Shown here: piece after piece, positions 23,277-57,243 of the stretch
Layout of the letters: each line of letters opens with the position of its first letter
Position numbering within the stretch: position 1 is the stretch's first letter
NCBI GenBank assembly: GCA_963555985.3
Contig: OY820591.1
Span: forward strand, 1,919,085-1,983,084
DNA from: Dehalococcoidia bacterium
GTDB lineage: Bacteria; Chloroflexota; Dehalococcoidia; Bin125
Length of the DNA: 64,000 nt
Reading direction: 5' to 3'
Notes under the pieces: generated by a model
What the model saw: the letters and a program-made list of their open reading frames with translations, nothing else
Told to the model about the DNA's origin: nothing
The model's database searches: none
Position numbers and translations under genes: made by a program

Positions 23277-23330
23277 CAGGATCGAGCGGAAGGATCAAGG
23301 CTCAACTCTACCGCGCGAGCGGGGAGTGAG

Positions 23331-25630: not shown

Positions 25631-25833
25631 TCAAGTGGCTCTGGTGGGATTGCGATGTGAGGAGCGAGTCGGTATGTCCCGCGCCCGGAGCCCGGAATGA
25701 CCCGGCCGTCGCGTCTCAGTTCCGCCAATGCGTTGCGGACTACTCGCGGGAGGTCGTCTGCCGGCACAGTGAAGTCCGAGACAAGCGCACCCAGCAAGTC
25801 CCATACCGTCACGTTGGCGCTCGTTGAGGTCAT
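25627..25833 (-). CDS. 68-aa winged-helix-like protein
   Basis: ..LAELRRDGRVIPGSGRGTYRLA.. The stop overlaps the GT4 start by 4 nt, and the start lies 4 nt after the methyltransferase stop. Confidence 0.45.
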   Translation of the reverse strand: MTSTSANVTVWDLLGALVSDFTVPADDLPRVVRNALAELRRDGRVIPGSGRGTYRLAPHIAIPPEPLE

Positions 25834-25837
25834 TGTG

Positions 25838-26752
25838 TTAGAGCCTCGACAACGCAGGAATCGCCTCGCAAGCGAGCCGCCAAAACTCAGGATCGATTTC
25901 TGTTCCGACGCCTTCGACTCCGAGCGCCTCAGCTGCGGCGAGTGTTGTGGCGCAGCCCGCGAACGGGTCTAGCACAACACCCGTCCCCATCGGCAGCGAG
26001 GCCCGGATCAGACGCCGCAGAAAGTCTTGCGGCTTGGCGGTGGGGTGCGCAGCAACAGCTCGCTCCGAGGCGGGCGTCTTGCCGCTCTCAATCACATCGA
26101 GGAACGGGGTCTCCTCCGACAAGCGGCGCAGGCCGCCAACCTCCCAGCGGCGCAGGTTCGCCGCTACGGTCGATTCCGAGAGCGGCCGCCGATACAGGCC
26201 CCACGGCTCCCAACACGAACGCGGCATCGTACTCAGATCGGGGAATTCGTCATGTGCGCCCTTCGGCCGGTCGCCGCCGCGCAGCGTGCGCACGAGCCGC
26301 ACGATCTCGCCTCGCCGCTCAAATCCGGCTGCTTCCATCGCAGCGGCGACAATCGGAGACATCAGCGGATTGCTCGCAACGAACACGTGCCCGCCGGGTC
26401 GGAGCACCGGATAGAGCAACTCTGCCCACTCCTGGAAGAAGGCGCGCAGATTGGAGCGGTCGGTCGCGGAGTGGACGGTAAAGCGGGGAACGGGCCGCCG
26501 TTGCGCGCCGTCGAACGCCGGCGGCAGTCTCCAGACGCCGCCGCGGCCATTGAGCATCTTCGCCACCTGGGCGGCCTGGTACTCGTGCAAGCCGTAGGGC
26601 GGGTCGGTGATGACGGCGTGAACGCTGTTGGGTGGAGCATCGCGTAACCAAGCGCGGCAATCCGTCAGGTGCAGAGTCTGGCGTCCATAGCGGAATGGCG
26701 ATGGAGCTTCGGCCAGCTCGGGCAGCGGCGCTTGTTTCTCGACGCCTCGCAT
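25838..26752 (-). CDS. Beta-class DNA methyltransferase (DPPY; probable N6-adenine), no intact nuclease partner
   Basis: Motif IV ITDPPYGL near the N-terminus and motif I LDPFAGCATT near the C-terminus. Confidence 0.9.
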   Translation of the reverse strand: MRGVEKQAPLPELAEAPSPFRYGRQTLHLTDCRAWLRDAPPNSVHAVITDPPYGLHEYQAAQVAKMLNGRGGVWRLPPAFDGAQRRPVPRFTVHSATDRSNLRAFFQEWAELLYPVLRPGGHVFVASNPLMSPIVAAAMEAAGFERRGEIVRLVRTLRGGDRPKGAHDEFPDLSTMPRSCWEPWGLYRRPLSESTVAANLRRWEVGGLRRLSEETPFLDVIESGKTPASERAVAAHPTAKPQDFLRRLIRASLPMGTGVVLDPFAGCATTLAAAEALGVEGVGTEIDPEFWRLACEAIPALSRL

Positions 26753-26764
26753 GTCGCGCTCCTC

Positions 26765-26800
26765 TATCTAGAACTAATCATCATTATATAACTCATGCGG
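26765..26800 (-). promoter_or_regulatory. Possible promoter for the MTase-to-PgsA operon
   Basis: The only AT-rich patch in the area. The minus strand reads ..gttatataatgatgatt.., with TATAAT at 26787-26782, about 30 nt upstream of the methyltransferase ATG. No clear -35 box. Confidence 0.25.
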
Positions 26801-26871
26801 CCGCGCCGCAGCGCCCAGCGAGAGCGCAACTTCTTTGCCGCCATAAGAGACCGATGCATATCACTCCTGAA

Positions 26872-27100
26872 TTGCCGCATTTCCGCCATTCCGACTCAAT
26901 GAGGCATCCAGTGTCGAGCAGATACGGAGACTGGATTCCCGCGTTCGGAGACATTTGCAAGATTCCCGATCTGAGCGTTTCGTCATTCTTGCGAACGCGA
27001 GAATCTACGTCCCACCCGATACGCCGCATGGATTCCCGCCTGCGCGGGAATGACGGAAATGGGGATTTTGCAAAGGCCTGCGTTCGCGGGAATGACGGTG
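26872..27100. repeat. Family-B mosaic repeat cluster
   Basis: ..cgatacgccgcatggattcccgcctgcgcgggaatgacggaaatggggattttgcaaaggcc.. plus degenerate copies upstream. Confidence 0.8.
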
Positions 27101-27290
27101 GAGGGAGTTATGCATCAAGTCTCCATAAGCGGACATCCGATTGCCTGTGCGAGCCTGTCCGGAGACTGGCAGCGATGGCGAACGCCGGCTCTTGCTCACG
27201 GCGATCTGTTGATGTTTCGTGAACGAATGGTTAACGTCTGGTTAGCGCGAGCCGGTCGGTTGAACGCGGCTCGCAAGAGGGGAGCGGCGC

Positions 27291-27923
27291 ATGACCTTGT
27301 CCAACTTCTCCATTTGCGAACAGCTGCTGCTGCTTGGCCTCAGCGAAGACGGAGCGCTTGACCAGTTGCGCCAAGCGCGGTTGGACTATGCCATCGCGGG
27401 CGCATCGCTAATCGACCTCTCTTTCGCCGGGCGGATTGACACCGATCTCGAGCATCTGCACGTGACCAGCGACGCGCCGACCGGAGACTCGCTGCTGGAC
27501 GAGGTGCTCAACCGGATTGCGAGCGGCTCGGCGAGGCAATCCACGCTCCACTGGATTGTGCAGATTGGCGCGTACGCCCACGATCTGCGCGAAGCCCGGC
27601 TGAGACACCTACGAGCGCGGACTGTCGTTCGGGAACGAGGCGGACGCCGGCAGATCGAGTTCCGCTGGTCACGAGAGGCGAAGCTCGACCCAAGCGTCGT
27701 TGCGGGGATCCGCGAGCATGTGTTTGGGTTGCTTCGAGGCAACGAGATTCCCGATCCTGAAGACGCGGCGCTGATCAGTCTGGCGCGCGCTAGCGGATTG
27801 CTCGACGTCCTGCTCTCACAAACGGAACGCGAGCAAGTCGAACCACGCCTCCTCACGCTGGCGAAGCTCGATCTGATCGGCCGCCAAGTCAACCACATGC
27901 TCGATGAAGCCCTGGCGAGCTGA
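27291..27923 (+). CDS. GPP34/GOLPH3-family protein
   Basis: ICEQLLLLGLSEDG..LDYAIAGASLIDLSFAGRI..PTGDSLLDEVL.. matches the GPP34 family pattern. Confidence 0.8.
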   Translation: MTLSNFSICEQLLLLGLSEDGALDQLRQARLDYAIAGASLIDLSFAGRIDTDLEHLHVTSDAPTGDSLLDEVLNRIASGSARQSTLHWIVQIGAYAHDLREARLRHLRARTVVRERGGRRQIEFRWSREAKLDPSVVAGIREHVFGLLRGNEIPDPEDAALISLARASGLLDVLLSQTEREQVEPRLLTLAKLDLIGRQVNHMLDEALAS

Positions 27924-28023
27924 CAGAGGCTCTTGCACCAGGCTCCACCCCACCATACCCGCGCTCGCCACGGGCGGCTTGCCATGATCGACGCCGAGGT
28001 CAACTGGTCGCCGCAGACGGTGT

Positions 28024-33691: not shown

Positions 33692-35113
33692 TTAGAGCTG
33701 ATTTCTCATGCTGGCGATGCGGCCGCGGTCGAGCGGCGGGAGGTGGAAGAACTCGATCCGGGTGGTTGGAGCTTGGGGCCGGGGTTGGGCCAGCTCGTGG
33801 CAGTAGCGGTCGGCGTCCAGGAGGTCGTCGTCGCGGTCTCGGGGTTGGGGGTTGGCGGCGCGGGGGTCTCGCCACTGGTACTCGCGCATCCGGCGCGGGA
33901 ACTGGACGAGCTCGGGGGTGTAGAAGGAGGTGGGCGGGTCGTTCGAGAGGCGTTCTTGGACCAGGCCGATGCCCTGGTGGACGGAGCCGGGCCCGCCCCG
34001 GCTGGGGCGGATGTCGCGCCCGCGGCGGTGGAGGTGGTCGATCCAGGCGGATTGGCTGCGGTCGGCGTTCCAACTGATCGAGCCGAAGCGCCGGCGGCAG
34101 TGGAGCATCCACTGTTCGAGCCGTTGAGTGACGCCGGGGCCGCGGTCCTCGAACTCGGCCAGGCGGATGAGGACATTGGGTCCGCAGACGGCGTAGCGGG
34201 CGGTGAGGCCGGCGACGATGCCGGCGGTGTAGTGGGCCTGCTCGGTCTGGGCGCCGAAGTCGAGGCCGCCGAGGTAACGCTCGAAGCTGGGCAGGCGCTT
34301 ATCCCAGAGGTGGCGTTTGGGGTCGAACTTGGGGTAGACCAGACCCTCGAAGGCGTCGAAGCGGCCCTCGATGAAGCGTTCGACCCAGTCGGGCGGGAGC
34401 AGGGCGCGTTGCTGTTCGGCGTAGTTGTCGGGCAGATGGGGGTTGTCCTCGATCTTGGCGGGGATGAAGACTGCTTGTCCGCCGGCGTGCTCGAGTTCAG
34501 CTTTGTTCAGTTCGCGTTGGACGAACCAGCGCTCGAACCAGCCTGGGTGGGGGTTGGAGGCGGCCACGAACCAGCGTTGCGGTTGGGCCGGGTGGCGGAG
34601 TCTGGTCAAGAGCATTTGGGCGGCTTCTTCGGCGACTTCGCCGGCTTCGTCGATCAGGACGGTGCCGTACTGCTGGGAGCCGAGGCCGGTCCAGTCGGAG
34701 AGATGGCGAAAGTGGATCGTGGAGGGTTCGCTCGAGTACTGGAGGCTGCTGACCGTGAGGGAATGGGTGGGTGAACTGCGGCGTTGGACGGTGAGGTCGG
34801 GGTCAGCGGTGCAGATGCGCAGGAACTCGCCCATGGTCGTGGTGTAGAGGTCTGTGAACGTGTCGCGTGCGAGCAGGATGTTGTTGCCCGGGAAGATCAA
34901 GGCCGCGTCCAGGGCGAGCTCGGCCAGGGCGCGGGTCTTGCCGCCGCCCATGGCGCCGCCGTAGCCGACCAGGGCGAGGCCGGGATTGGGCACGGTAGCG
35001 ACTGCGCAACAGAGCTCGCGCTGTCTGTCCGTCGGAAAAAAACCGCGAGACTTGTGCAAGCGGTCGAACGCAACGACCGCCCGCTTTGAGCTGGGGGTAT
35101 TACTGTGGCTCAT
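33692..35113 (-). CDS. Phage terminase large subunit
   Basis: Walker A GYGGAMGGGKT, Walker B ..GTVLIDEAGE.., and a C-terminal RNaseH-like nuclease region ..DDDLLDADRYC.. Confidence 0.85.
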   Translation of the reverse strand: MSHSNTPSSKRAVVAFDRLHKSRGFFPTDRQRELCCAVATVPNPGLALVGYGGAMGGGKTRALAELALDAALIFPGNNILLARDTFTDLYTTTMGEFLRICTADPDLTVQRRSSPTHSLTVSSLQYSSEPSTIHFRHLSDWTGLGSQQYGTVLIDEAGEVAEEAAQMLLTRLRHPAQPQRWFVAASNPHPGWFERWFVQRELNKAELEHAGGQAVFIPAKIEDNPHLPDNYAEQQRALLPPDWVERFIEGRFDAFEGLVYPKFDPKRHLWDKRLPSFERYLGGLDFGAQTEQAHYTAGIVAGLTARYAVCGPNVLIRLAEFEDRGPGVTQRLEQWMLHCRRRFGSISWNADRSQSAWIDHLHRRGRDIRPSRGGPGSVHQGIGLVQERLSNDPPTSFYTPELVQFPRRMREYQWRDPRAANPQPRDRDDDLLDADRYCHELAQPRPQAPTTRIEFFHLPPLDRGRIASMRNQL

Positions 35114-35784: not shown

Positions 35785-36825
35785 TCCTAGTCTCACAGAC
35801 GAAGTGCGACAGATGATTGAGGTGAGCCCATGGGCGCGCAGTACACGCAGTTGGACCTGGCGGAGCGATGCGCGGTTGCCCGCTTACAGGCCGAGGGGCG
35901 CTCGATCCGGCAGATCGCTGCAGCTCTGGATCGCTCGCCATCGACGATTGCTCGAGAGCTGAAACGCAACACGGCGCGCGACGGCTACCGTCCCGACTAC
36001 GCCCAGCAACAGGCCCAGGCGCGGCGCTGGCGCGGTTCGCGGCTGGAACGCGACGATCAGCTGCGCGCGCGGGTGCTGCGCGAGTTGGCCCGCGGGCTCT
36101 CGCCGCAACAGGTCGCAGGCCGGCTGGCGCGCGAGGCGGGCGCGCCGGTGATCTCGCACGAGAGCATCTACCGCTTCATCTACGCCCAAGCCTCGCGGGC
36201 CAAGCCCGGCCGCGGCGGCGGTTGGCGCCAGTATCTGCCGCGGCGCAAGGCGAAACGCGGTTGGCGCGGGCGCAAAGGCGGCAGTTCGGTCGAGCGCATC
36301 CAACTGCGGCGGCCCCTGAGCGAGCGCCCGGCGGCGGCCGCCGGGCGGCTCGAAGCCGGTCACTGGGAGGCCGACCTGATGCTCTTCGGGCGCGGCGGTC
36401 CGCTCCTGCTGATGCTGCACGAGCGCTCCTCGCGGCTGCTCGTGGGCTTGCCCGTGGCGGGCAAGGCGGCCGCTCCGGTCGCGCGCCTGCTGCTCAGCCT
36501 GCTCCGCGCCTGGCCGCCCGCCCTGCGGCGCACGGTCGCGTTCGACAACGGGACCGAGTTCGCCCGCCACTACGAACTGCACCGGCTGGGCGTGGAGACC
36601 TTCTTCTGCGACCCCTACGCGCCCTGGCAGAAGGGCGGGATCGAGAATGCGATCGGACGCCTGCGCCGGGTCCTGCCGCGCCGGCTCGACCTCGCCCAAC
36701 TCAGCCTCGCGCGTTTGATCGAAGTGCTGCAGTTGTACAACAACACCCCCCGCCAGTGCCTCGACTACCTCTCCCCGGCCGAAGTCTTCGGTCGGCAGTT
36801 GTTGCAGTTGCAATGTGAACCCACC
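35785..36825 (+). mobile_element. IS30-family insertion sequence (~1.04 kb; boundaries inferred from the interrupted repeat)
   Basis: The flanks ..ccgcatggatt | IS | ttcccgcctgcgcgggaatgacgg rebuild an intact family-B module (compare 27023-27056) with a putative 2-bp TT duplication. Terminal inverted repeats are only weakly recognisable by eye. Confidence 0.6.
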
Positions 36826-36846
36826 TTCCCGCCTGCGCGGGAATGA
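35830..36846 (+). CDS. IS30-family transposase
   Basis: N-terminal HTH ..GRSIRQIAAALDRSPSTIARELKRN.. and a DDE core ..GHWEADLM.. The last 7 codons and the stop lie in the flanking repeat. Confidence 0.88.
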   Translation: MGAQYTQLDLAERCAVARLQAEGRSIRQIAAALDRSPSTIARELKRNTARDGYRPDYAQQQAQARRWRGSRLERDDQLRARVLRELARGLSPQQVAGRLAREAGAPVISHESIYRFIYAQASRAKPGRGGGWRQYLPRRKAKRGWRGRKGGSSVERIQLRRPLSERPAAAAGRLEAGHWEADLMLFGRGGPLLLMLHERSSRLLVGLPVAGKAAAPVARLLLSLLRAWPPALRRTVAFDNGTEFARHYELHRLGVETFFCDPYAPWQKGGIENAIGRLRRVLPRRLDLAQLSLARLIEVLQLYNNTPRQCLDYLSPAEVFGRQLLQLQCEPTFPPARE

Positions 36847-36885
36847 CGGAATTGGGGATTTACGCGCGGGTCTCCTCAAGGGGGA
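36826..36885. repeat. Right-hand remainder of the IS-interrupted family-B module
   Basis: ttcccgcctgcgcgggaatgacggaattggggatttacgcgcgggtctcctcaaggggg. Confidence 0.75.
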
Positions 36886-37013
36886 TGGGGGAGGCGATAG
36901 GATGGGTGGTACTGGGACTGGCCAGGTATTGGGCTTTGCCGATGTGCAGTGGGCGGACGACATCGACTCGCGTTCGAGCGGTTTTTCCTGATCCGCCACG
37001 ACGGCCGGGGGAT

Positions 37014-37757
37014 ATGACCAGCTTTAAACACATCGCGATCAGCGGGAATGCTCATCACCTGCTTCAGCACTTCATTGAGCGGGGCGGGCGGCCGGAGACC
37101 ATGCTGGTTGGGGGCGAGCTGTATTTGAGTCCTGATTTCGGGGTGGGGCGGCGGGGATTGCGGGTGCCTGACCTGTTGGTGGCGTTCGATGTCGACATAG
37201 AGGCGTATTACCGCAGCAATGCGTATGTGATTTCGGAGCAGGGCAAGCCGCCCGACTTTGTGCTGGAGGTCGCTTCGCCGAGCACGGCGCGGGTGGATAC
37301 GGGAGTGAAGCGGGAGGCGTACGCGGCGCTTGGGGTGGGAGAGTACTGGCGGTTTGACGAGACGGGGCGGTTGCATGGGGCGCGTCTGGCGGGCGACCGG
37401 CTGGTTGAGGGCGAATATGAGCCGCTTGCGCTAGAGGAGTTGTCGGCGGATGCGGTGCAGGGGTACAGCGCGGCGCTCGATTTGCATCTACGCTGGGAAC
37501 GGGGCGAGCTGGTGTTCGTTGATCCGGCGACGGAACGTCGGATCCTGAGCTATGAGGATCAGCGTCTGCGGGCGGATGAGGAAACGGCGGCGCGGATTCG
37601 GGCGGAAGCGCAGCTCGACCAAGAAGAGGCAGCGCGCGTTCGTGAAGAAGCCGCGCGGGAGCGGGCGGAGGCCGCGCGCGAGCAGGCCGAGGCGCGAGTG
37701 CGCGAATTGGAACGACAACTTGAGGGCCGCTCTGAGGGCGGCGAACAGGAAGCGTGA
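37014..37757 (+). CDS. Uma2-family (DUF820) endonuclease with a C-terminal coiled coil
   Basis: Internal ATG at 37014. ..PDLLVAFDVD..PPDFVLEVASPST..KREAYAALGVGEYWRFD.. is a PD-(D/E)xK-like core. Tail: ..ARVRELERQLEG. Confidence 0.85.
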   Translation: MTSFKHIAISGNAHHLLQHFIERGGRPETMLVGGELYLSPDFGVGRRGLRVPDLLVAFDVDIEAYYRSNAYVISEQGKPPDFVLEVASPSTARVDTGVKREAYAALGVGEYWRFDETGRLHGARLAGDRLVEGEYEPLALEELSADAVQGYSAALDLHLRWERGELVFVDPATERRILSYEDQRLRADEETAARIRAEAQLDQEEAARVREEAARERAEAAREQAEARVRELERQLEGRSEGGEQEA

Positions 37758-39464: not shown

Positions 39465-39470
39465 GTGGTT

Positions 39471-39625
39471 GGGGGACCCCCCTCTGTCACTTCGTGACAT
39501 CTCCCCCCGCAGTGCGGGGGGAGAGGCTCCGGGTTTAGGGGGTTGGGTGCTGGATGTGGCGTTTCACCCCCTCTGCCCCGTTGGGGCATCTCCCCCTTGA
39601 GGGGGAGATTCTTGGGGGGGCGGGG
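39471..39625. repeat. Family-A mosaic repeat cluster (short form plus A3 module)
   Basis: gggggacccccctctgtcacttcgtgacatctccccccgcagtgcggggggagagg.. followed by gcgtttcaccccctctgccccgttggggcatctcccccttgagggggagattcttggggg. Confidence 0.85.
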
Positions 39626-39666: not shown

Positions 39667-40434
39667 ATGGGGCGGACTTGGCGGCTGGTGTGGTTGATGG
39701 GGCTGGCGCTGGGGGCGGCGGTGGCGGCGGCTTGCGGTTCGGGTGGGGAGGAGTCTGCGGCGGCGCCGTCTCAGGCTCAGACGGAGCAGGCGCAGGTGGC
39801 GCAGGCTGCTGAGGAGGTAGCGCAGGAGGGGGAGTCGGTGGGGCCGCAGGCACCTGAGGCGGAGCCGGAGGGGGAGGAGCAGGGGGATACGGTGACGGTG
39901 GTGTCGGTGAGTTATCACAAGGGGGTGGCGGCTGAGCGGCATGTGTTGGGAGAGCCGGATGCGCCGGTGGTGATTTTGCACTTTGGGGACTTTCAGTGAC
40001 CGTTTTGCCAACGTTTCACGGCTCAGGTTGAGCCGGTGATCATTGAGCGGTTGGTGACGACGGGGATTGCGCGTTATGAGTTCCGGCAGTTCCCGGTGTT
40101 GGGCGAGCGGTCGGTCTATGCGGCGCTGGCGACGGAGTGCGCGGCGGATCAGAACGAGTTCTGGCCGCTGCATGACCGTTTCATGGCGAATGACCGGACG
40201 CTCTATACGGAGGGGGGTCTGCGGCGGCAGGCGATTGCGGAGGGGATGGACGCGGACGCGCTCTTTGAGTGCATCCGCGAGAATGCGCATCTCGAGGCGA
40301 TCCAGGCGTCGCGCGCCGAGGGTCAGCGGCGGGGGGTGACGGCGACGCCGACGATCTTTGTGAACGACGTGAAGGTGGATCCGACGCTGGAGGCGATTTT
40401 GGCGGCGGTCGCCCAGGCGGGAGACGGCTCGTAG
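39667..40434 (+). CDS. DsbA-like thiol:disulfide oxidoreductase, predicted selenoprotein (U-P-F-C; TGA 39997-39999 read as Sec)
   Basis: Track ORFs 39631-39999 and 40036-40434 share one frame with no other stop between them. Context is ..VVILHFGDFQ-TGA-PFCQRF.. The downstream half has DsbA features (..ATECAADQ.., cis-Pro loop TATPTIFVN). Signal peptide MGRTWRLVWLMGLALGAAVAAAC. A hairpin lies downstream (next feature). Confidence 0.75.
40017..40038 (+). promoter_or_regulatory. Putative bacterial SECIS hairpin for the 39997 TGA
   Basis: cggctca-ggt-tgagccg is a perfect 7-bp stem that can be extended with a bulge. It starts 20-22 nt after the U of TGA. The same sequence class follows the two paralog TGAs. 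Confidence 0.65.
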
Positions 40435-40455
40435 CGTGAAGGAGGGTGTCGAGAT

Positions 40456-41259
40456 ATGAGTGCGACGCGGACGTGGGTACTGGGGCTTGCGGTGGCCGGC
40501 GTGCTGGCGGCGCTGTCGGCGAGCGCTTGCGGCTCGCAGGGGGACGGCGAGCAGCCGGAGCAGCCGGTCAGCTATCAGGCGGGGGCGACGGAGACGACGG
40601 AGCGGCCGGATCGCCAGTCCACGGTTGCGGCCGGCCAACCGGATCAAGCCGAGCAAGCTGAGCAGAGCACGATCGATAGCGAACAAGCCGATGCGGAGCC
40701 TGAGGATGACGGCGCGGTCAGGGAAGTGCTGCGGCGTCACCGGGAGGGGTTGCAGGCGAACCGGAATGTGGTGGGCGATCCGAATGCGCCGATCACGATT
40801 GTGGAGTATTCGGACTTTCAGTGAAGCTCCTGCCGCCGGTTCGCGGCTCAGGCTGAGCCGCAGATTATCGAGGAAGTGGTGCGGACGGGGCTGGCGAAGT
40901 ATGAGTACCGGCACTTTCTGATTTTTGGGGCGCAGTCGGAGTTTGCGGCGCTGGCGACGGAGTGCGCGGGGGATCAAGGTCACTGGTGGGATTTCCACGA
41001 TGAGTACATGACGGGGAATGCGGTGCGTTATACGCGCAAGGGGGCGCTGGAGTACGCGGCTGAGCTGGGGATGGACGGTGAGGAGTTCAGTCAGTGTCTG
41101 GAGGACGGTCGTCATTTGGGCCGGATCGAGGCGATGCAGCGTGAGGCGTATGAGCGTGGGATACCGGGGACGCCGACGATCACGATTAATGGCGAGCGGG
41201 TGGGGAATTCGCCGGCGACGATCATTCGCCGGGTACGGGAGTTGGCCGGGGTGGAGTGA
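40456..41259 (+). CDS. DsbA-like thiol:disulfide oxidoreductase, predicted selenoprotein (U-S-S-C; TGA 40822-40824 read as Sec)
   Basis: Track ORFs 40456-40824 and 40876-41259 share one frame. Context is ..ITIVEYSDFQ-TGA-SSCRRF.. The downstream half has ..ATECAGDQ.. and cis-Pro loop IPGTPTITIN. Signal peptide ..LAVAGVLAALSASAC. Confidence 0.75.
40843..40861 (+). promoter_or_regulatory. Putative bacterial SECIS hairpin for the 40822 TGA
   Basis: gcggctca-ggc-tgagccgc is a perfect 8-bp stem with a 3-nt loop, starting 21 nt after the U of TGA. Confidence 0.65.
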
Positions 41260-41295
41260 GGGGGTTTTGGGGGATATGAGTGTACGGATCGCTTA

Positions 41296-41493
41296 GGGGA
41301 CCCCCCTCTGTCCCCCCGCCTTCGCGGGGGCAGGCTCTACGGGACATCTCCCCCCGCAAGGGGGGAGAGGGGAGCTGGGGTTTGGGGTTGGTAGTGCTCA
41401 CGGCGAGATACCCGCGGCAAGCGCGGGTATGACGGAGCTGTGGGCGCGGGAATGACGGAATGTGGGATTACGCGCAGGTCTCCTTGAGGGGGA
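41296..41493. repeat. Mosaic repeat cluster (A long form plus B2 plus B modules)
   Basis: ggggacccccctctgtccccccgccttcgcgggggcaggctctacgggacatctccccccgcaaggggggagagggga.. and ggcgagatacccgcggcaagcgcgggtatgacggag.. Confidence 0.85.
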
Positions 41494-41498
41494 GCGGG

Positions 41499-41705
41499 TT
41501 AGGCGGGGTCGTCTTTGGGGTGGGGGGTGTGGAGAGGGAGCGGGGTGCGCTGGGATTGTTTGCAGCGGCGGCAGCGCCAGACGACGACGATGTGGGCTTC
41601 GTAGTCGTGCTCGACGACGCTGTGGAGGGCGGGGCGGCCGTTGTGTTGGACGCTGGGGCAGTCGGGGTTTTGGCAGCGGACTTCCTGCTTGTGCGGGCCG
41701 GTCAT
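41499..41705 (-). CDS. Small zinc-ribbon protein (68 aa)
   Basis: ..VRCQNPDCPS.. and ..WRCRRCKQ.. form a CxxC..CxxC arrangement. Lies immediately downstream of the portal-like gene. Confidence 0.45.
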   Translation of the reverse strand: MTGPHKQEVRCQNPDCPSVQHNGRPALHSVVEHDYEAHIVVVWRCRRCKQSQRTPLPLHTPHPKDDPA

Positions 41706-41747: not shown

Positions 41748-43694
41748 TCAGGGATGGGGGACGCGCTCGTCGGCGGGATCGGTGAGCGGGGAGAGCGGGG
41801 GCAGGTGGGCGCGAGTCGTGATCGAGGCCGCCGAGCTGGGTTGGGTCTTGGCGGACGGGCTGACGGTGGCGAGTTCGCGCTCGAGTTCGGCTTGCTCGCG
41901 ACGCCAGGCGCGATGCCGGGCGAGCGTTTCGGCGGCGTGCTCGTCGCCGATGTACTGCTCCAGATAGGCGCGCTGGTCAAGCGGATCGAGTGGATCATTG
42001 AGGCGGGCTCGTCCATGTTCCTGGACGGCGATGCGCTGGGCGGTGGAATAGGGATCGATCCAGACGTCGATATCGAGTTCGGCGAGTTGTTCGGGGGGGA
42101 CGCCGACGGTTTCGCTGCGGCGCACGCGCCCGTCGCCGGACTTGGCATAGGTCCAGACCGGGCCGCCGAAACCGCCCTCGGCGAGGGGCTTGGACATGAC
42201 CAGGGCCATGTTGCGCAGCATCACCCGCACCGCGCGGGCTTGATTGCGCTTGAGTTGTTGCACCTGCAAGCTGCGCGAGCCGAGCAGCAGATTGAGCGTG
42301 TGGGGTTGGGTGTTGGGGCCGATCTCGCCGCGTTCGACCGCGCCCGCGTCGGGGGCGGCGGCGATCAGTTCGTCGGCGGACATGCGCAGGAATTCAACGA
42401 AGGCGGGGTCGATCCGAAACTCGATGCGGTGCAGCGATGCGCCCTGGGGGAGGGTGCGCGCGGCGGCGGTATCGGGCGTCAGGGCGACCCGGTTGCCGTC
42501 ATCATCGGTCTGCCAGGAGCCGTCGGCGAGTTGGACCCAGTAGAGCGGGAGCGCGGTCTGTTCGGCGAGGAAGCGTCCGAGTGAACGCTCGTAGTCGTAG
42601 CCCGGCTTGACGCGATAGACGCCTTCCATCGCGGGTTCCCAACGGTAGAGCGGATCGGGATGTTCGTTGACGTCGGCCTCGGCCAGGACGAAGGGCGGCA
42701 TTTCGTAGGGATGGGGATGGGACTTGATCAAGAGCCAGCGGTCGTTGGCGGGGGCGGGGGCGGCCAGTTCGTAGTACTCGCGGCGGGTCCAGACGGAGGC
42801 GACGCGGATGCGCTCGCCCCAACCGTCCCCCGACGGTTCATCGGCCTGGGGCGCAGCGGCCGGGCTGCCGATCGCCAGTGAGGGTTCGTCACCGAGCCGA
42901 TGTAGGCGAAGCTCGATGCGGTCTTGACGGCGCACGCGATCGCGGTAGTCGAACAGAGCCAGTTCACGGAGGACGACCGCGAGTCCAAGTCCGTTGCCGG
43001 CCCCGCGATCTTCGATGAAGGCGAACTGATCGGGGCGGATGACCTCGATTTCCCAAGGGAAGCCGGCGTTGGCCTGCGCCTGCCGATCGCGGTTACGGCG
43101 GCTCGCTTCGGTTTCGATCCAGTCGGCGTCGGCGTGATCGTTGGGTTGTGCGCGGCGGAAGCGTTGTCGTTCGCCGGGGTCGCGCGGCTCCGTGTCGCGG
43201 GTTTCGGCGGGCGGATAAGCGGGCAGCCGGTCGAGCGCGCGTTGCCAGTGAAGCACGCCGAAGCAAAGGCAAACCTGTCCATAGCCGAGCGCGGCCTGGA
43301 TGTTGATGCCGCTGCGTTCCTGGAGCAGGCGCAGTCCGTGCTCAAAGACGTGTTCGAGATCGTCGGCGGCGCGGCGGGCCGCGTCGGACTGATCGGGCGG
43401 CTCGACGTGGACGCGCAAGGGATGCTCGGTCAGGCGCTGGCGGAGCTGCGCCCAGGTGCGTCGGAGCAGGTCGGTCTGCCACGGTTCGGCCTTGCTGTGA
43501 GTCTTGTCGAAGCGGGGATTGACCGCTTCGCTGTTGTAGAGGTGCTGCTCGCGGTGGAGGATGCGGTCATGCAGAACTCCGAAGCGAGTCAGCGCGCCGC
43601 CGCCGGCGCGTCCGCGTCCGCCTCCCAACTGTTCGAGGATGCGATTGAGGTCGTCCTCGGAGAGGGTGTGTGCCAAGATTCGGTTGTGCGACAT
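41748..43694 (-). CDS. Putative phage portal protein
   Basis: About 648 aa from ATG 43694; the track offers an alternative start at 43712. Size and helical/acidic pattern look portal-like, and other phage head genes are in the window. No diagnostic motif can be verified by eye. Confidence 0.5.
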   Translation of the reverse strand: MSHNRILAHTLSEDDLNRILEQLGGGRGRAGGGALTRFGVLHDRILHREQHLYNSEAVNPRFDKTHSKAEPWQTDLLRRTWAQLRQRLTEHPLRVHVEPPDQSDAARRAADDLEHVFEHGLRLLQERSGINIQAALGYGQVCLCFGVLHWQRALDRLPAYPPAETRDTEPRDPGERQRFRRAQPNDHADADWIETEASRRNRDRQAQANAGFPWEIEVIRPDQFAFIEDRGAGNGLGLAVVLRELALFDYRDRVRRQDRIELRLHRLGDEPSLAIGSPAAAPQADEPSGDGWGERIRVASVWTRREYYELAAPAPANDRWLLIKSHPHPYEMPPFVLAEADVNEHPDPLYRWEPAMEGVYRVKPGYDYERSLGRFLAEQTALPLYWVQLADGSWQTDDDGNRVALTPDTAAARTLPQGASLHRIEFRIDPAFVEFLRMSADELIAAAPDAGAVERGEIGPNTQPHTLNLLLGSRSLQVQQLKRNQARAVRVMLRNMALVMSKPLAEGGFGGPVWTYAKSGDGRVRRSETVGVPPEQLAELDIDVWIDPYSTAQRIAVQEHGRARLNDPLDPLDQRAYLEQYIGDEHAAETLARHRAWRREQAELERELATVSPSAKTQPSSAASITTRAHLPPLSPLTDPADERVPHP

Positions 43695-43852
43695 GCGAGC
43701 GCCTTTCACCACACGGGAATGGGTAGGCGCTCAATAGTGAAATGTCAGTTCGCTGATGTCAAGATAGAATGAAGGACTTGTGTTGTCTGGGATGCGTGTT
43801 CTATAGGAAGCGGACATAACGGAGTCGAAGAGGCGATATCCGCATTGGTCGC

Positions 43853-43901: not shown

Positions 43902-44855
43902 TTAGTTCTGATCGTCCAGCGCCGCCTGGACGGCCTCGATGACTGAGGCGGCGTTCGCTCCGACGCGGCGGCCGTCTACGTAGATGGCGGGAGTGCGAAG
44001 GCGGCCGCCGGGATCGCCGGCTTCGGCTCGGGCGCGGCGGGCGGCGGCGTTGATCGTGGGAACGTGGGTGTTGCGATCGAGGCAGCGTTCGAACCGGGCG
44101 GCGTCAAGCCCCAGTTGTTGGGCCAGCCAGACTGCGCCTGCGCGTTGATAGAGGCGGTGGAAGCCCTGAGGCGGGATTGGTTCGGCCCTGGTCATGTAGG
44201 TGTCGTGGAATTGCCAGAAGGCGCCTTGATCGGCGGCGCATTCGACCGCTTCGGAGACGAACTCGCTCTGCGCGTGCTGGAGGACGTGGACGAACTCGAT
44301 CCGGGCGAGTCCGCTTCTGACCACTGCTTCGATGATCTGCGGCTCAGCCTGAGTCGCGTACCGCTGGCAGAGGGGTCACAGGAAGTCGCTGTAGTCGATG
44401 ATCAGGACGGGGGCCTGGGGATGTCCGAGGAGGTTGCGGTCGTGGAGGATGCCGGCGAGTTCGCCTTCCTGGATCGCGGCCGGATCGATTTGGGCGCTCA
44501 CGGCTCCGCCGCTGTAGTAGAGGCGGCTGGAGGTTGAGAGCTCGAAGTCGGCGGCGCCCGGCAGGTTCCGTCCGCCGGCGTCGGCGGCGTAGCCGAGCCA
44601 GCGCGAGCCGTCCCAGAGCCACAAGGCGCGAACGCCTGTGGCGCGCAGGCGAGCGCCGTGCTCTCGCCACAACTCGGAGGCGGTTGCGCCGGGCGCCCAG
44701 GTTGGCCAGGCGATGCGCTGATCGCCGAAGGAGAGGTGGAGTCCGCCGGTGTCTTCGGGTCCGTGGGCGTCGGCGTGAGTGTGGAAGCCGATCGCGCCGG
44801 CAAGGATGAGCGCGCAGAGGAGGAGGCGTAGGGCGGCGGGGTTTGGGGGTGTCAC
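43902..44855 (-). CDS. DsbA-like thiol:disulfide oxidoreductase with an extra N-terminal domain, predicted selenoprotein (U-P-L-C; TGA at 44378-44376 read as Sec)
   Basis: Track ORFs 44376-44921 and 43902-44324 share one frame. Context is ..VLIIDYSDFL-TGA-PLCQRY.. The downstream half has ..AVECAADQ.. and the loop RTPAIYVDG. The start is tentatively GTG 44855, just ahead of the signal-like LRLLLCALILAGAIG; the track start lies inside a repeat. Confidence 0.7.
44339..44357 (-). promoter_or_regulatory. Putative bacterial SECIS hairpin for the 44378 TGA
   Basis: The minus strand reads gcgactca-ggc-tgagccgc, an 8-bp stem with one A/C mismatch, starting 21 nt after the U of TGA. Confidence 0.6.
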
Positions 44856-44872: not shown

Positions 44873-45046
44873 CGGGGGTTTGCCGGACCCCCGCTGTCGC
44901 TTCGTGACATCTCCCCCTCAAGGAGACTTGTGCATAAGTCGATTTTCTCCCGTCATTGCCGCGGCGGAGCGCGGCAATCTCGCTGTGCGCACGACGATGG
45001 TGCAGATAAGGGCGTCATACCCGCGGCAAGCGCGGGTATGACGAGG
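44873..45046. repeat. Mosaic repeat cluster (A short form plus B2-type hairpins)
   Basis: ..ggacccccgctgtcgcttcgtgacatctccccc.., gtcattgccgcggcggagcgcggcaat.., gtcatacccgcggcaagcgcgggtatgac. Confidence 0.8.
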
Positions 45047-45090: not shown

Positions 45091-46329
45091 TTAGTTTTGG
45101 GCGACGGCGCGGACGGCGACGGTTCCGCCTTCGAGGGGGTCGGTGATTTGGCCGGCGAGGCCGGGGTGGGCGGCGGGACGGTCGAAGTTGATGGAGGCGA
45201 GGTTGGCGAGGTAGTCGTCGTACTGGCGCTGGCGCAGGTTCTTGAGCTTGTCCAGGCCGGCCTGGAGGTTTTCGAGGCCGCCGGCGAGGAGGACGATCAG
45301 GGCTTCGCGCTCGGAGGTGCTGAGGCGCATTTCCTGGACGAGGGAGGCTTCGGCGCGGAGGAAGGAGATGGGCAGGCGGCGGTCGGCGTCGGGCTTGTAG
45401 CGGTCGTACCACTCGAGGTGTCCGAGGCCGTAGTCGAGGTGGCGGCGGGAGTCGGCGGCGATGCGGGCGAAGATGTCGCGCTCGACGTCGGTCTGGGCCC
45501 ACTCGGAGGCGGACTCGAAGAGGGTGACTTCGTAGCTTTTGTAGACGACGTTGAGGGCGATGATCATGTCGGTGAAGGTGAGGCCCTGGTACCAGCCACG
45601 GTAGATTTGACCGAGTGGGGCTTGTCCGAGGCCGCCGCCGTTGATGAGGGCGCGCTTGCGGAGGACTTCGACCTTGCGTCCGGCGTCGAAGGCTTGGGTG
45701 GCGAGGAAGAGCTTGACTTCGTGGAAGCCGTAGGAGATTTCTTCGAGCCAGCGGCCGATGATCTTCTGCTCGACGAGGCCGTTGTTGCTGTAGACGGTGC
45801 AGATTTGTCCGACGGCCTTTTCGAGTTCTTCGGGCAGTTCTTCGAGGCCGTTGGCCCAGTCGAGTTCGGTGGCCGGAGTCCAGCGGGCCTTGATGGCGTC
45901 TTCGTAGAGGTCGACGGCGTTTTCGGACCAGACTTCGGCCTTGTCGAAGATGGAGTAGCCGGCGGCCATGATCTGACCGGTGGTTTCGGTGCCGCGGGGG
46001 GCGTCGTTGGGGAGTTGCCAGTTGTCTGGGACGACGCCGTAGCTGCCGATGTTGATGTCGCGCAGGCGGAGACCGTCGGGGCCGGGCGTCGCCTTCAATC
46101 CAACCTCCGCCGGAGAGTTGAAGATGTTGAAGGGGGCCTTGCCGAAGGGGTTGTCGGGATGGTTTTCGAGGAAGTCGAGCCAGCCGTTGATTTTTTCTTC
46201 GCTCAGTTCGCCCCGGGCCAGGTTCTCGACTTGCTTGTCGGTGGCTTCCGAGGCTTCGATGCGTTCGAGGAGTGCGTCGGACCAGCCAGCCTTGCGGGCG
46301 CGGACTTTGGTCATGGTGGAGAGTTGCAT
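45091..46329 (-). CDS. Ferritin-like (diiron-carboxylate fold) protein with degenerate metal ligands
   Basis: Clear paralog of the next gene: LFLATQAFDAGRKVEVLRKRALINGGGL aligns with LFLGTQLMDEARHLDVFRKRTLINGGGM, and AADSRRHLDYGLGHLEW aligns with AQDESRHLAFGVTHLKY. Both ExxH glutamates are replaced. Confidence 0.75.
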   Translation of the reverse strand: MQLSTMTKVRARKAGWSDALLERIEASEATDKQVENLARGELSEEKINGWLDFLENHPDNPFGKAPFNIFNSPAEVGLKATPGPDGLRLRDINIGSYGVVPDNWQLPNDAPRGTETTGQIMAAGYSIFDKAEVWSENAVDLYEDAIKARWTPATELDWANGLEELPEELEKAVGQICTVYSNNGLVEQKIIGRWLEEISYGFHEVKLFLATQAFDAGRKVEVLRKRALINGGGLGQAPLGQIYRGWYQGLTFTDMIIALNVVYKSYEVTLFESASEWAQTDVERDIFARIAADSRRHLDYGLGHLEWYDRYKPDADRRLPISFLRAEASLVQEMRLSTSEREALIVLLAGGLENLQAGLDKLKNLRQRQYDDYLANLASINFDRPAAHPGLAGQITDPLEGGTVAVRAVAQN

Positions 46330-46515: not shown

Positions 46516-47562
46516 CTAGTTGTCTTCGCCGACGAGGGCTCGGACTTCTGGGGCGAAGCGTTCGGCGCGGTCGAGGCCGATCACTTCGAGGCGGTGGGCG
46601 TACTCGACGAACTGCTTTTTGCGCATGAGCATGACCATGTTGTAGCCCTCGTCGAGGTGTTCAATGCCGCCGCCGGAGAGGATGGCGAGGGCTTCGCCGG
46701 TGAGGGGGTTGGTGGTCAGGCTGGTCTGCTGGCTCTGGGTGAGGAGAGCTTCCTGCATGTCGAGGATGTGGTGCAGTTCTTCCTTGCGCCAGGGTTCGGT
46801 TTCGACGGTGTACTTGAGGTGGGTGACGCCGAAGGCGAGGTGTCGGGACTCGTCCTGGGCGGAGAGGCGGAAGATGCGCTTCTCGGCTTCGTTCTGGGCG
46901 ATCAGTTCGCCCATGCGGAAGAGGGTCTGGACGAAGCCCTCGCCGACGAGGTGGAGGAGGGCGGTCATTTCGGTGAAGTCGTCGGAGCTGAGCAGCTGGA
47001 CGGCGCCGATGCCGGCGCCGGACATGCCGCCGCCGTTGATGAGGGTGCGCTTGCGGAAGACGTCGAGGTGTCGGGCTTCGTCCATGAGCTGGGTGCCGAG
47101 GAAGAGCTGGGACTCGAAGAATTCGGGGTGAATCTGTTCGAGGAAGCGTCCGGGGACGTCGCCGGCGATGAATTCGACCTGAGTGAGGAAGGTGCAGAGG
47201 GTGCACATGGCGCGCTCGAGGTCGGGGGACATTTCGTCGATGGTGTCCCAGGGGATGTCGCGGGCAGAAGACCACTGGCGCTGAAGCGCCTCTTCGTAGA
47301 GCAGCATGGCGGATTCGGTCCAGACGTCGGCCTTGTTCATGTGCTGGACGCTGTTGGAGGGCGAGCGTGGGTCGGCGGCGGCGCCGCGCGGGGCCCACTG
47401 TCGCTGGCGGGCTTCGTCGCGGTCGTCGACGCCGTAGGTGAGTTGGTTGATCGTCTCCAGCGTGAGCCCTTTGCGCCCGGTCTCGATCTCCATGCCCTGC
47501 TCGGTATCGACGTTGAGCCAATCGAGGTTGATTCCGGGGAGGTCGTGCTGAATCGTGGCCAT
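46516..47562 (-). CDS. Ferritin-like diiron-carboxylate protein (putative oxygenase catalytic subunit)
   Basis: Two ExxH motifs (MDEARH, QDESRH) plus single-Glu helices. The start is set at ATG 47562, with GGAG 9 nt upstream; the track ORF starts at 47622. Confidence 0.75.
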   Translation of the reverse strand: MATIQHDLPGINLDWLNVDTEQGMEIETGRKGLTLETINQLTYGVDDRDEARQRQWAPRGAAADPRSPSNSVQHMNKADVWTESAMLLYEEALQRQWSSARDIPWDTIDEMSPDLERAMCTLCTFLTQVEFIAGDVPGRFLEQIHPEFFESQLFLGTQLMDEARHLDVFRKRTLINGGGMSGAGIGAVQLLSSDDFTEMTALLHLVGEGFVQTLFRMGELIAQNEAEKRIFRLSAQDESRHLAFGVTHLKYTVETEPWRKEELHHILDMQEALLTQSQQTSLTTNPLTGEALAILSGGGIEHLDEGYNMVMLMRKKQFVEYAHRLEVIGLDRAERFAPEVRALVGEDN

Positions 47563-47683
47563 CAGTGCGCTCCAGGTGTTCTGAGGCGGACGTCGCAGGT
47601 CCGCGGGTGGTTTGGGAGGCATGGTACATGGTCGGGTTAGTTGGTGCAGAATCGGTCTACGTGCAGCGCGCTAGACTGCGCGC

Positions 47684-47959: not shown

Positions 47960-49132
47960 GTGTATCTGACGCTGCTTGAATTGTCCGAGTTTCGTTCGTG
48001 GGCGCGAATTGAGCTGGCGCTCGAGCCTGGATTGACCCTGATCTCGGGTCCTAATGCGGCGGGGAAGTCGAACCTGATTGAGGCGCTTTATCTGCTGGCG
48101 GCGCTGCGTTCGACGCGGGCGTCGGTAGAGGGTGAGTTGATTCGCTGGGGGGCGGACGCGCCGCAGACGATGCGCATTGCCGGCACGGCCGCGACCCGCG
48201 CAGGGGAGGTGGAGGTAGAGGTGGCGGTGTCGGCGCGATCGGGGACTGCGGGCGGGGGCGCGCGGATGCGGACGGGCGCTCCCTTGACGAGCAAGCGGAT
48301 TCGGGTGAACGGGGTGCCACGGCGGGCGGCTGAGGCGCTGGGCGCGATCCGAGCGGTGCAATTCACGACGCTCGATCTGGAACTGCTGACTGGTTCGTCG
48401 TCGCTGCGCAGGCGCTACCTCGATGTGGCGATCGGTCAGTTGCGGGCGGGTCATGCGTCTGCGCTCTCGCGTTATCAGCGGGCGCTGCAACAGCGCAATG
48501 CGCTGCTCAAGCGGGTTGCGGCGCATCAGGCGCGCGCATCGGAGTTGGAGCAGTGGGACGGGTTGCTGGCTTCGGCTGCTGCGCCGATCTGGAGATCGCG
48601 CTCGGCGGCGACGGCGGCGCTCGCGGCGGCTGCGGTAGTGCGGCACACTGAGTTGCGAGCGGGCAACGAGGCGCGGGAGGAGTTCGCACTGCGTTATGTT
48701 CCGGCACTGCCGGACGGTGCGAATGGCGAAGACTGGGAGGGCGCGATGGGGGATGCGCTCGCTCAGGGGCGCGGGCGCGATCTTGCACGGGGCAGCACTC
48801 AGATCGGGCCGCATCGGGATGAGTTGGCGATTGATCTGGATGGGCGGCCGGCTGCTGCGTTCGGCTCCCGCGCCCAGCAACGCGCCTGCGCGCTCGCGCT
48901 GCGGCTGGCGGAGGCGGACTATCTCGAGGCCGGCTCCGGCGAAGCGGCGATTCTGCTGCTGGATGACATCTTCAGCGAACTCGATCCTGATCGGCGCGAG
49001 CGTACGGCGTCGGCGCTCGACGGTGCGGAACAGGTGATCCTCACGACGGCGGATACGGATTCGCTGCCGGACGGCCTAGACAACCTGTCGGCGGCGTGGA
49101 CGATTGAGGATGGGCGGCTGCGCGGTCGCTAG
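47960..49132 (+). CDS. recF: DNA replication and repair protein RecF
   Basis: N-terminus LELSEFRSW..ISGPNAAGKSNLIEALYLL (Walker A), signature ..GSRAQQRACALALRLAE.., and Walker B ILLLDDIFSELD. Confidence 0.9.
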   Translation: MYLTLLELSEFRSWARIELALEPGLTLISGPNAAGKSNLIEALYLLAALRSTRASVEGELIRWGADAPQTMRIAGTAATRAGEVEVEVAVSARSGTAGGGARMRTGAPLTSKRIRVNGVPRRAAEALGAIRAVQFTTLDLELLTGSSSLRRRYLDVAIGQLRAGHASALSRYQRALQQRNALLKRVAAHQARASELEQWDGLLASAAAPIWRSRSAATAALAAAAVVRHTELRAGNEAREEFALRYVPALPDGANGEDWEGAMGDALAQGRGRDLARGSTQIGPHRDELAIDLDGRPAAAFGSRAQQRACALALRLAEADYLEAGSGEAAILLLDDIFSELDPDRRERTASALDGAEQVILTTADTDSLPDGLDNLSAAWTIEDGRLRGR

Positions 49133-49156: not shown

Positions 49157-49846
49157 ATGTCCACTGCCGATGCCTCATCCACCGCCCAAACCTTGGTCCG
49201 CTTCCGCCTGCCGGAACCGCCGGAGCGGAATCCCGACGAAGTGACTTCTTACGACTACGTCCATCTGACCGGCAACCCGCATTTCCTGGCGCAGCATTTC
49301 GCCCAGCCCGAGACGACGCTCGTCAGCGCGGAGCGCTACCTCGTCGCCGCTCGCGGCTCTCGACTGCGCCGCGTCCCCGACCTGCTGATCGCCTTCGACG
49401 TCGATCCCGAGCTGTACTACGAGCAGAACGGCTACGTGATCGCCGACCAGGGCAAGCCGCCCGATTTCATCCTCGAGGTCGCTTCGCCCAGCACGGCGAA
49501 GATCGACACGGTCGACAAGCGGCGCGACTACGCCGCCCTGGGCGTGCGCGAGTACTGGCGCTTCGACCACACGGGCGAGTGGCACGGCGCGCGTTTGGCC
49601 GGCGACCGCCTGGTCGGGGAGCGCTACGAGCCGATCCCGATCGTGGAGTTGTCGCCCGGCGTTTTGCAAGGCGAGAGCGAAGCCTTGGGTCTGTGGCTGC
49701 GCTGGGAGCAAGGCGCGCTCGGTTGGTACGACCCGGCGACGGGGCGGCACATCCCTACCTTCGACGCGGAGCGGGAAGGCCGCTTGGCTGCGGAAGCGCG
49801 GGTGCGGGAGCTTGAGGCGGAGTTGCGGCGGCGCGGGGAGCGCTAG
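49157..49846 (+). CDS. Uma2-family endonuclease, tandem copy 1
   Basis: ..PDLLIAFDVD..PPDFILEVASPST..RRDYAALGVREYWRFD.. Coiled-coil tail ..ARVRELEAELRRRG. Confidence 0.85.
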   Translation: MSTADASSTAQTLVRFRLPEPPERNPDEVTSYDYVHLTGNPHFLAQHFAQPETTLVSAERYLVAARGSRLRRVPDLLIAFDVDPELYYEQNGYVIADQGKPPDFILEVASPSTAKIDTVDKRRDYAALGVREYWRFDHTGEWHGARLAGDRLVGERYEPIPIVELSPGVLQGESEALGLWLRWEQGALGWYDPATGRHIPTFDAEREGRLAAEARVRELEAELRRRGER

Positions 49847-49878: not shown

Positions 49879-50610
49879 ATGTCCACTGCCGATGCCTCAT
49901 CCACCGCCCAGACCTTGGTCCGCTTCCGCCTGCCGGAACCGCCGGAGCGGAATCCCGACGAAGTGACTTCTTACGACTACGTCCATCTGACCGGCAACCC
50001 GCATTTCCTGGCGCAGCACTTCGCCCAGCCCGAGTCGACGCTCGTCAGCGCGGAGCGCTACCTCGTCGCCGCTCGCGGCTCGCGACTGCGCCGCGTCCCC
50101 GACCTCCTAATCGCCTTCGATGTCGATCCCGAGCTGTACTACGAGCAGAACGGCTACGTGATCTCGGACCAGGGCAAGCCGCCCGATTTCATCCTCGAGG
50201 TCGCCTCGCCCAGCACGGCCAAGATCGACACGATCGACAAGCGGCGCGACTACGCCGCCCTGGGCGTGCGCGAGTACTGGCGTTTCGACCACAGCGGCGA
50301 GTGGCACGGCGCTCGGTTGGCCGGCGACCGCCTAGTCGGCGAGCGCTACGAGCCAATCCCGATCGTGGAGTTGTCGCCCGGCGTCTTGCAGGGCGAGAGC
50401 GAGGCCCTGGGTCTCTGGCTGCGCTGGGAGCAGGGCGCGCTGGGTTGGTACGACCCGGCGACGGGGCGGCACATCCCTACCTTCGACGCCGAGCGCGAAG
50501 GCCGCTTGGCTGCAGAAGTACGAGCAGATACGGAGCGAGCGGCGCGGTTGGCTGCGGAAGCGCGGGTGCGGGAGCTTGAGGCGGAGTTGCGGCGACGGGG
50601 AGGGCGGTAG
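49879..50610 (+). CDS. Uma2-family endonuclease, tandem copy 2
   Basis: Nearly identical to copy 1 at a 722-bp offset. By eye there are 4 substitutions in the first ~200 aa plus a 14-aa insertion, EVRADTERAARLAA, in the tail. Confidence 0.85.
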   Translation: MSTADASSTAQTLVRFRLPEPPERNPDEVTSYDYVHLTGNPHFLAQHFAQPESTLVSAERYLVAARGSRLRRVPDLLIAFDVDPELYYEQNGYVISDQGKPPDFILEVASPSTAKIDTIDKRRDYAALGVREYWRFDHSGEWHGARLAGDRLVGERYEPIPIVELSPGVLQGESEALGLWLRWEQGALGWYDPATGRHIPTFDAEREGRLAAEVRADTERAARLAAEARVRELEAELRRRGGR

Positions 50611-57178: not shown

Positions 57179-57243
57179 GCGCAGCCTTTGGCCTCTTGCG
57201 CGCCGAGTGCGCCGAACTTTTCTCACCACGAAGCAGGCAACGA

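Follow-up and report, generated by a model that had tools for sequence, protein, structure and literature searches.

Three predicted selenoprotein genes of the DsbA/BdbD type at one locus of a Dehalococcoidia bacterium

We have analysed a stretch of 64,000 nucleotides (nt) from a Dehalococcoidia bacterium of the Chloroflexota (assembly GCA_963555985.3, contig OY820591.1, positions 1,919,085 to 1,983,084 of the forward strand), which we refer to as the window and in whose coordinates all features are given. It contains three genes, here called g1, g2 and g3, in which an in-frame TGA codon stands where DsbA-like proteins carry the first cysteine of the catalytic CxxC motif, and in each of them the TGA is followed by a small hairpin. 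These are very probably real genes decoded with selenocysteine (Sec, U), encoding predicted extracytoplasmic UxxC thiol-disulfide oxidoreductases of the DsbA/BdbD type. In all three products selenocysteine would then take the first place of the CxxC motif, that of the exposed nucleophile.

The first gene, g1, lies at 39667-40434 on the plus strand, it starts with the ATG at 39667, preceded by GGAG, and ends with TAG. Its in-frame TGA at 39997-39999 (HFGDFQ-TGA-PFCQRF) is the predicted Sec codon at position 1 of a UPFC motif. The second gene, g2 (40456-41259, plus strand), also begins with ATG, preceded by GGAGG, and has the predicted Sec codon at 40822-40824, position 1 of a USSC motif (EYSDFQ-TGA-SSCRRF). 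An earlier reading of this DNA, made without database searches (the sequence-only reading), had described g1 and g2 as pairs of open reading frames (ORFs) in one frame with a single TGA as the only stop between the halves. This is what the sequence contains, and the Thioredoxin_4 domain (PF13462) matches without a break across the TGA in all three joined proteins when a cysteine is placed there. The scores are 108.9 bits for g1 (E = 4e-31), 101.8 bits for g2 (E = 5.9e-29) and 60.2 bits for g3, all of which exceed the 23.2-bit gathering threshold. The same reading counted three copies at the locus. A third copy does exist, it lies beyond the region that was pointed to and on the minus strand, from 43902 to about 44855. 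This gene, g3, encodes a UPLC Thioredoxin_4 domain, its predicted Sec codon is at 44376-44378 (DYSDFL-TGA-PLCQRY) and it ends with TAA. The start of g3 is uncertain, the options on the minus strand running from a GTG at 44853-44855 as far as a TTG at 44919-44921, with the frame open to 44921. TGA serves as a normal terminator in the window, as the earlier reading had noted: it ends the genes at 11201-12193 and 57196-58137, the DUF885 gene (at 39464), g2 itself (41257-41259) and many other genes with Pfam support.

The TGA codons of the window align with the N-terminal cysteine of CxxC in solved structures of the DsbA/BdbD type (3GYK, 4PWP and 3EU3), and database homologues with cysteine read EYSDFQCPFC at this position. 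The second cysteine of the motif and the cis-proline (GTP) loop are kept in the window proteins. Alignment with cysteine homologues and structures, together with the Pfam match, thus agrees with two points of the sequence-only reading, that the TGA replaces the first cysteine of CxxC while the second is retained, and that the downstream halves carry the rest of a DsbA fold with its cis-proline loop. Among 187 homologous active sites in the loci that we fetched (numbered L001 and so on), the codon at this position is TGC or TGT in 164, TGA in 17 and degenerate in five, and it is never TAA or TAG. Independent samples yielded 24 distinct genes that keep the TGA at this position, and it is kept in four paralogue groups.

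Sec forms are rare among the homologues. A scan of contigs with g2 as the query, which was biased by the pattern VEYSDFQC, gave cysteine-type homologues only, at no more than 42% identity. When 1.84 billion representatives were searched with a profile, multi-domain DsbA fusions dominated the top of the list; the best 150 matches included only five short C-terminal fragments, one of which is the window's own, and the search told us little beyond the rarity of Sec forms. Many of the homologues (P0001, P0002 and P0261-P0271) are fused counterparts of the tandem arrays, with two to six DsbA-like domains in one polypeptide of up to 1196 amino acids.

RecF (47960-49132 in the window) assigns the source organism to the Chloroflexota. 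Syntenic relatives of the locus were located through this protein, which is 79% identical in L163, 75% in L165 and 65% in L167, a contig of 3.49 Mb. In L163 the DUF885 gene, g1 and g2 are followed by a small ORF and by a gene of 650 aa; the two TGAs and their hairpins are kept and g3 is absent. L165 has g1, g2 and g3 with their TGAs, and the hairpin of its g3 is identical to that of the window, including an A.C mismatch. L167 carries four TGA-type genes in tandem. The TGA and hairpin are also present in unrelated metagenome and Logan contigs, with two genes in L001 and L084, four in L085 and one in L086. Together the window-type genes form a coherent clade, predicted to be Sec-only, that comprises the four paralogue groups and whose nearest cysteine relative is 36-46% identical; its members occur as two to four genes in tandem, with one solitary copy. 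In the gene calls for the relatives' contigs and for L001 every TGA-type copy is split into two fragments.

For the part downstream of the TGA the ratio of non-synonymous to synonymous substitution rates (dN/dS), measured against the syntenic orthologues, is 0.12 for g1, 0.05-0.06 for g2 and 0.10 for g3, at a synonymous divergence (dS) of 1.0-2.2. The part after the TGA has therefore been translated in frame throughout this divergence. Because the TGA and the hairpin are, in addition, kept across independent assemblies, in orthologues and in paralogues, pseudogenes and assembly errors are excluded as the source of the TGAs. Both features that the sequence-only reading asked of orthologues, the alignment of TGA with cysteine and the hairpin, are thus conserved.

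The hairpin of g1, CGGCUCA-GGU-UGAGCCG (40019-40035, plus strand), has a folding energy of -9.8 kcal/mol, and that of g2, GCGGCUCA-GGC-UGAGCCGC (40843-40861, plus strand), one of -13.2 kcal/mol. The hairpin of g3, GCGACUCA-GGC-UGAGCCGC (44339-44357, minus strand), contains one A.C mismatch. In all three genes the apical loop starts exactly 26 nt after the TGA. The sequence-only reading had reported nearly the same hairpin 20-22 nt after both TGAs of the tandem pair; the hairpins are there, and counted from the A of TGA their stems begin at 20 nt in g1 and 19 nt in g2, slightly closer than that range. Like the bacterial selenocysteine insertion sequence (SECIS) consensus of bSECISearch, the window hairpins have a small apical loop starting with GG, an upper stem of 7-8 bp and a distance of 26 nt from the UGA. 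As the earlier reading expected of SECIS elements, the hairpins of g1 and g2 fit the published constraints, with the 26-nt spacing and the loops GGU and GGC. The motif CGGCTCAGGYTGAGCCG has three sites in the 64 kb, all at these genes, where 0.12 would be expected. Comparison of the window with Rfam, at gathering thresholds, gave no match, and we saw no curated family covering the hairpin.

Selection acts on the hairpin at the RNA level. In 12 window-type genes of the clade, the five amino-acid-conserved codons of the stem-loop (GCG GCT CAG .. GAG CCG) all lack synonymous variation, whereas outside the hairpin the third base is invariant in only one of 45 amino-acid-conserved codons; the hypergeometric chance of this difference, calculated from those counts, is about 3e-6. 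A hairpin conforming to the model follows 14 of 16 distinct TGA-type sites and only 5 of 154 cysteine-type sites (Mann-Whitney p = 1.5e-25), and the contrast persists against 42 G+C-rich cysteine sites. No hairpin was found in the nearest cysteine relative, L087. The proposed helix is 85% paired, compared with at most 40% in slid controls, and its core shows one compensatory change from U-A to C-G, in L085d and L167. More distant Sec lineages have other hairpins in the same zone with compensatory changes of their own, CUGACG/CGUCAG in L091 against CUGGCG/CGCCAG in L100, and likewise between L090 and L099. The segment GAGCCGC, encoding Glu-Pro, pairs with downstream sequence in L090 and L099 and with upstream sequence in the window type.

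The N-termini of g1 (LGAAVAAAC-GSGG) and g2 (LAALSASAC-GSQG) conform to the lipoprotein signal-peptide rule, with the lipobox cysteine codons at 39733-39735 and 40528-40530 on the plus strand, and the signal peptides ending in cysteine that had been proposed for both are borne out. In both proteins the lipobox is followed by an acidic linker, some 70 aa long, with a high content of Q, E and A. A lipobox signal peptide is present in 14 of the 15 clade relatives checked, the exception being the L165 orthologue of g3. In g3 itself and in this orthologue the signal peptide is plain, with no lipobox, and the two proteins share an additional N-terminal domain of some 110 aa. In g3 this extension (44480-44855, minus strand) contains GLHLSFGDQRIAWPTW followed by LWLWDGSRW, it is conserved in the L165 orthologue and no family match was found for it.

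UxxC selenoproteins related to DsbA (COG2761) and DsbG (COG1651) were predicted in 2005-2006 (PMC1088965, PMC1794560) and both still stand in the list of a 2026 review (PMC13188914). The statement in the sequence-only reading that such selenoproteins had been predicted before was correct (PMC1088965, PMC13188914, NF041057), and the novelty of the window genes is therefore well below what that reading implied. The best curated match of all three proteins is the NCBIfam family NF041057, named "Rcas_1661 family thioredoxin-like (seleno)lipoprotein", with E-values from 1e-33 to 1e-44. The review ties this family to the DsbG-like selenoproteins (UxxC, COG1651) of the Zhang/Gladyshev lists (PMC13188914). 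A literature search for the name 'Rcas_1661' found no paper. The window proteins share with NF041057 a lipoprotein signal peptide, a linker and a Thioredoxin_4/COG1651 domain with UxxC or CxxC, and the alignment spans almost all of the model (in g2, positions 6-231 of 247). The lipobox feature is present in g1 (AVAAAC) and g2 (LSASAC), while g3 has no lipobox and carries its additional N-terminal domain. A further difference is that the window-type genes are arranged in arrays of two to four tandem paralogues.

Form 1 of the DsbA-like selenoproteins, defined by PF01323/COG2761, was predicted from the Sargasso Sea data and from genomes (PMC1088965, PMC13188914). It has in common with the window genes a thioredoxin-fold domain of the DsbA type, predicted Sec at position 1 of CxxC and a SECIS-type hairpin just downstream, the window genes differ from it by their export signals. 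PF01323 is also not their best domain, it scores 47.9 bits in g1 and 45.2 bits in g2 and has no match in g3, and PF13462 is far stronger. The COG2761/PF01323 family is FrnE-like. The extracytoplasmic DsbA homologues of the cysteine type (3GYK, 4PWP/4PWO, BdbD 3EU3 and 4JR4) have the same domain, in which CxxC and the GTP loop align residue for residue with the window proteins at about 30-35% identity; they have cysteine in place of the TGA and no recoding element. We therefore regard the window-type genes, in a Chloroflexota lineage, as a new subfamily, so far without annotation, within a class of selenoproteins that is already known.

Several observations weigh against decoding of these genes with Sec. 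Neither the 64-kb window nor any of the loci that we fetched contains a homologue of selA, selB or selD or a tRNA, tRNA-Sec included. When the window and all loci were searched by tblastn with E. coli SelA, SelB and SelD, the sole match was the GTPase domain in L105, L107 and L108. In L163 a protein of the AIRS family was considered as SelD and rejected, being 27% identical and lacking the N-terminal Cys/Sec motif. Given the pattern of conservation, a genome that lacked the Sec machinery altogether would be very unlikely. The model for bacterial SECIS elements is permissive, as 11% of the positions of this window, which is rich in G+C, satisfy it, and the z-scores of 64-nt folds after the TGA are not significant: -1.7 for g1, -0.8 for g2 and +0.9 for g3, where the fold began 3 nt after the TGA. 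A single hairpin is for these reasons weak evidence. The g3 hairpin is borderline and departs from the consensus in its energy, which is -6.0 kcal/mol and reaches the model threshold of -7.5 kcal/mol only with dangling ends. The core stem is nearly invariant, so that classical covariation is thin, amounting to the one compensatory pair. Finally, the scores against NF041057 (130.9 bits for g1, 152.9 for g2 and 116.2 for g3) are all below its equivalog cutoff of 190 bits, and by the rule of NCBI the three proteins therefore belong to sister subfamilies and are not members of the family.

These points bear differently on the possible explanations. If the TGAs were ordinary nonsense codons, the genes would be decaying pseudogenes or annotation fragments and the sequence downstream would not be part of the same protein. 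The splitting of each copy into two ORFs by gene callers would be expected and so would the lack of Sec machinery in the window. We regard this as very improbable, because the downstream halves evolve at a dN/dS of 0.05-0.12 when dS is saturated, the position of the TGA is maintained across 24 distinct genes and four paralogue groups, the stop is always TGA and never TAA or TAG, and the hairpin is under selection as RNA. The last observation also counts against a third way of reading the locus, in which the hairpin is a by-product of the conserved peptide AAQxEP, or serves mRNA stability or pausing, and the C-terminal halves are made from internal GTG starts. Such codons do follow the hairpins, at 40036 and 40876, and the hairpin does encode a conserved peptide. 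Conservation of a peptide cannot explain why synonymous sites in the hairpin are frozen (5/5 against 1/45), cysteine-type homologues, including the nearest one (L087), do not have the hairpin, and a C-terminal fragment would have no signal peptide, no first beta-strand of the thioredoxin fold and no active site. We consider this reading to have very little chance of being right, about as little as that of nonsense codons.

Readthrough of the UGA without Sec is slightly less improbable than these two and still quite unlikely. Here a near-cognate or suppressor tRNA would insert Trp, Cys or Gly and the hairpin would act as a generic stimulator of readthrough, and it is true that the hairpin alone does not tell which residue is inserted. 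The site, however, is the catalytic cysteine of CxxC, where all catalogued UxxC selenoproteins have Cys/Sec pairs (PMC1088965), and Trp or Gly there would inactivate the enzyme. The hairpin fits the geometry of a SelB-type bacterial SECIS, including G in the first loop positions, and the nearest curated family, NF041057, is expressly a (seleno)lipoprotein family. Decoding of the three genes with Sec is the reading that we favour.

For Sec decoding, we infer a mechanism from the established bacterial Sec pathway and from DsbA chemistry. The hairpin 26 nt after the UGA would act as a bacterial SECIS and recruit SelB-GTP together with Sec-tRNA(Sec), and the UGA would be read as Sec. The full-length pre-protein would leave the cytoplasm unfolded via the Sec translocon of protein export. 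The products of g1 and g2 would be lipidated at the lipobox cysteine and anchored on the external side of the membrane, with the long acidic linker as a tether, and that of g3 would be secreted or anchored by its plain signal peptide. Outside the cytoplasm the Se-S redox pair could exchange with thiols and disulfides of exported proteins. Compared with a cysteine enzyme, one with Sec at an exposed nucleophilic position is expected to exchange faster, to be less prone to irreversible over-oxidation and to have a lower redox potential. Roles as oxidase, isomerase or reductase would therefore all be possible for these proteins.

A 654-aa protein (41748-43712, minus strand) and a 68-aa protein (41499-41705, minus strand) are encoded convergently with g2 and have no match in Pfam, PHROG or PDB. 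L163 and L165 have the pair at the same place, with lengths of 650-652 aa and 70 aa, and in L167 a 676-aa gene lies beside the DsbA array. The window contains 15 copies of a G/C-rich palindromic intergenic repeat with the core GGGGGAGATGNCNCNAAG, where 0.25 would be expected, and the repeat is also present in L163. Copies at 39469-39600 and 41293-41390 flank the g1-g2 pair, another lies at 44900-44917 and there are 12 others; this family looks like repetitive extragenic palindromic (REP) elements or miniature inverted-repeat transposable elements (MITEs). A gene for a phage-type large terminase (33692-35113, minus strand) is found near the DUF885 gene and the DsbA array. At least four variants of this gene, of 90% identity or more, occur on the same 3.15-Mb genome contig, the gene is therefore part of a multi-copy element, and in L167 a terminase gene (20696-21128) adjoins DUF885.

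Beyond g3, the neighbouring genes at 45091-46329 and 46516-47622 (both on the minus strand) weakly resemble R2-like ligand-binding oxidase, with E-values of 2e-4 and 5e-8, and the two stay beside recF in L163, L165 and L167. Synteny with the relatives is broken by insertions of an IS30-type transposase and Uma2-family genes. In the window these are the transposase gene and three Uma2-family endonuclease genes, at 35830-36846 (plus strand), 36843-37757, 49157-49846 and 49879-50610, and the transposase has at least seven near-identical copies in the genome. A strong GC skew changes from negative to positive at about 23-28 kb, independently of the coding strand, and recF lies at 47960-49132. The switch near 23000-28000 may mark the origin or the terminus of replication, but a search for clustered DnaA boxes found none. 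In two of the fetched metagenome contigs (L092 at about 2630 and L098 at about 2610, both on the minus strand) another thioredoxin-fold gene has an in-frame stop at a cysteine of CxxC (VYSSPT-*-PRCPQAV) and adjoins DsbA-like genes of the cysteine type; it probably represents a separate family of selenoproteins.

The window genes do not alter what is known of Sec decoding. If the split ORFs were joined, this genome would gain three selenoproteins and each of its relatives up to four. Among the prokaryotic selenoprotein families that the cited papers list, extracytoplasmic members tethered to the membrane are uncommon. The related hairpins, including stems rebuilt in another register, are a compact natural data set on what SelB needs from a SECIS. 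A broader proposal, which we offer tentatively and think rather doubtful, is that a Chloroflexota lineage converted an entire set of DsbA-type surface oxidoreductases to Sec, giving a selenium-dependent system of extracytoplasmic thiol-disulfide exchange, the set being a sister family that curated models miss, with a SECIS that was rebuilt between lineages around the same GAGCCGC codons. The window-type set has persisted while more than one substitution accumulated at each synonymous site on average, and the conservation of several paralogues suggests that selenium chemistry brings an advantage to these bacteria, in oxidative folding or in redox defence outside the cytoplasm.

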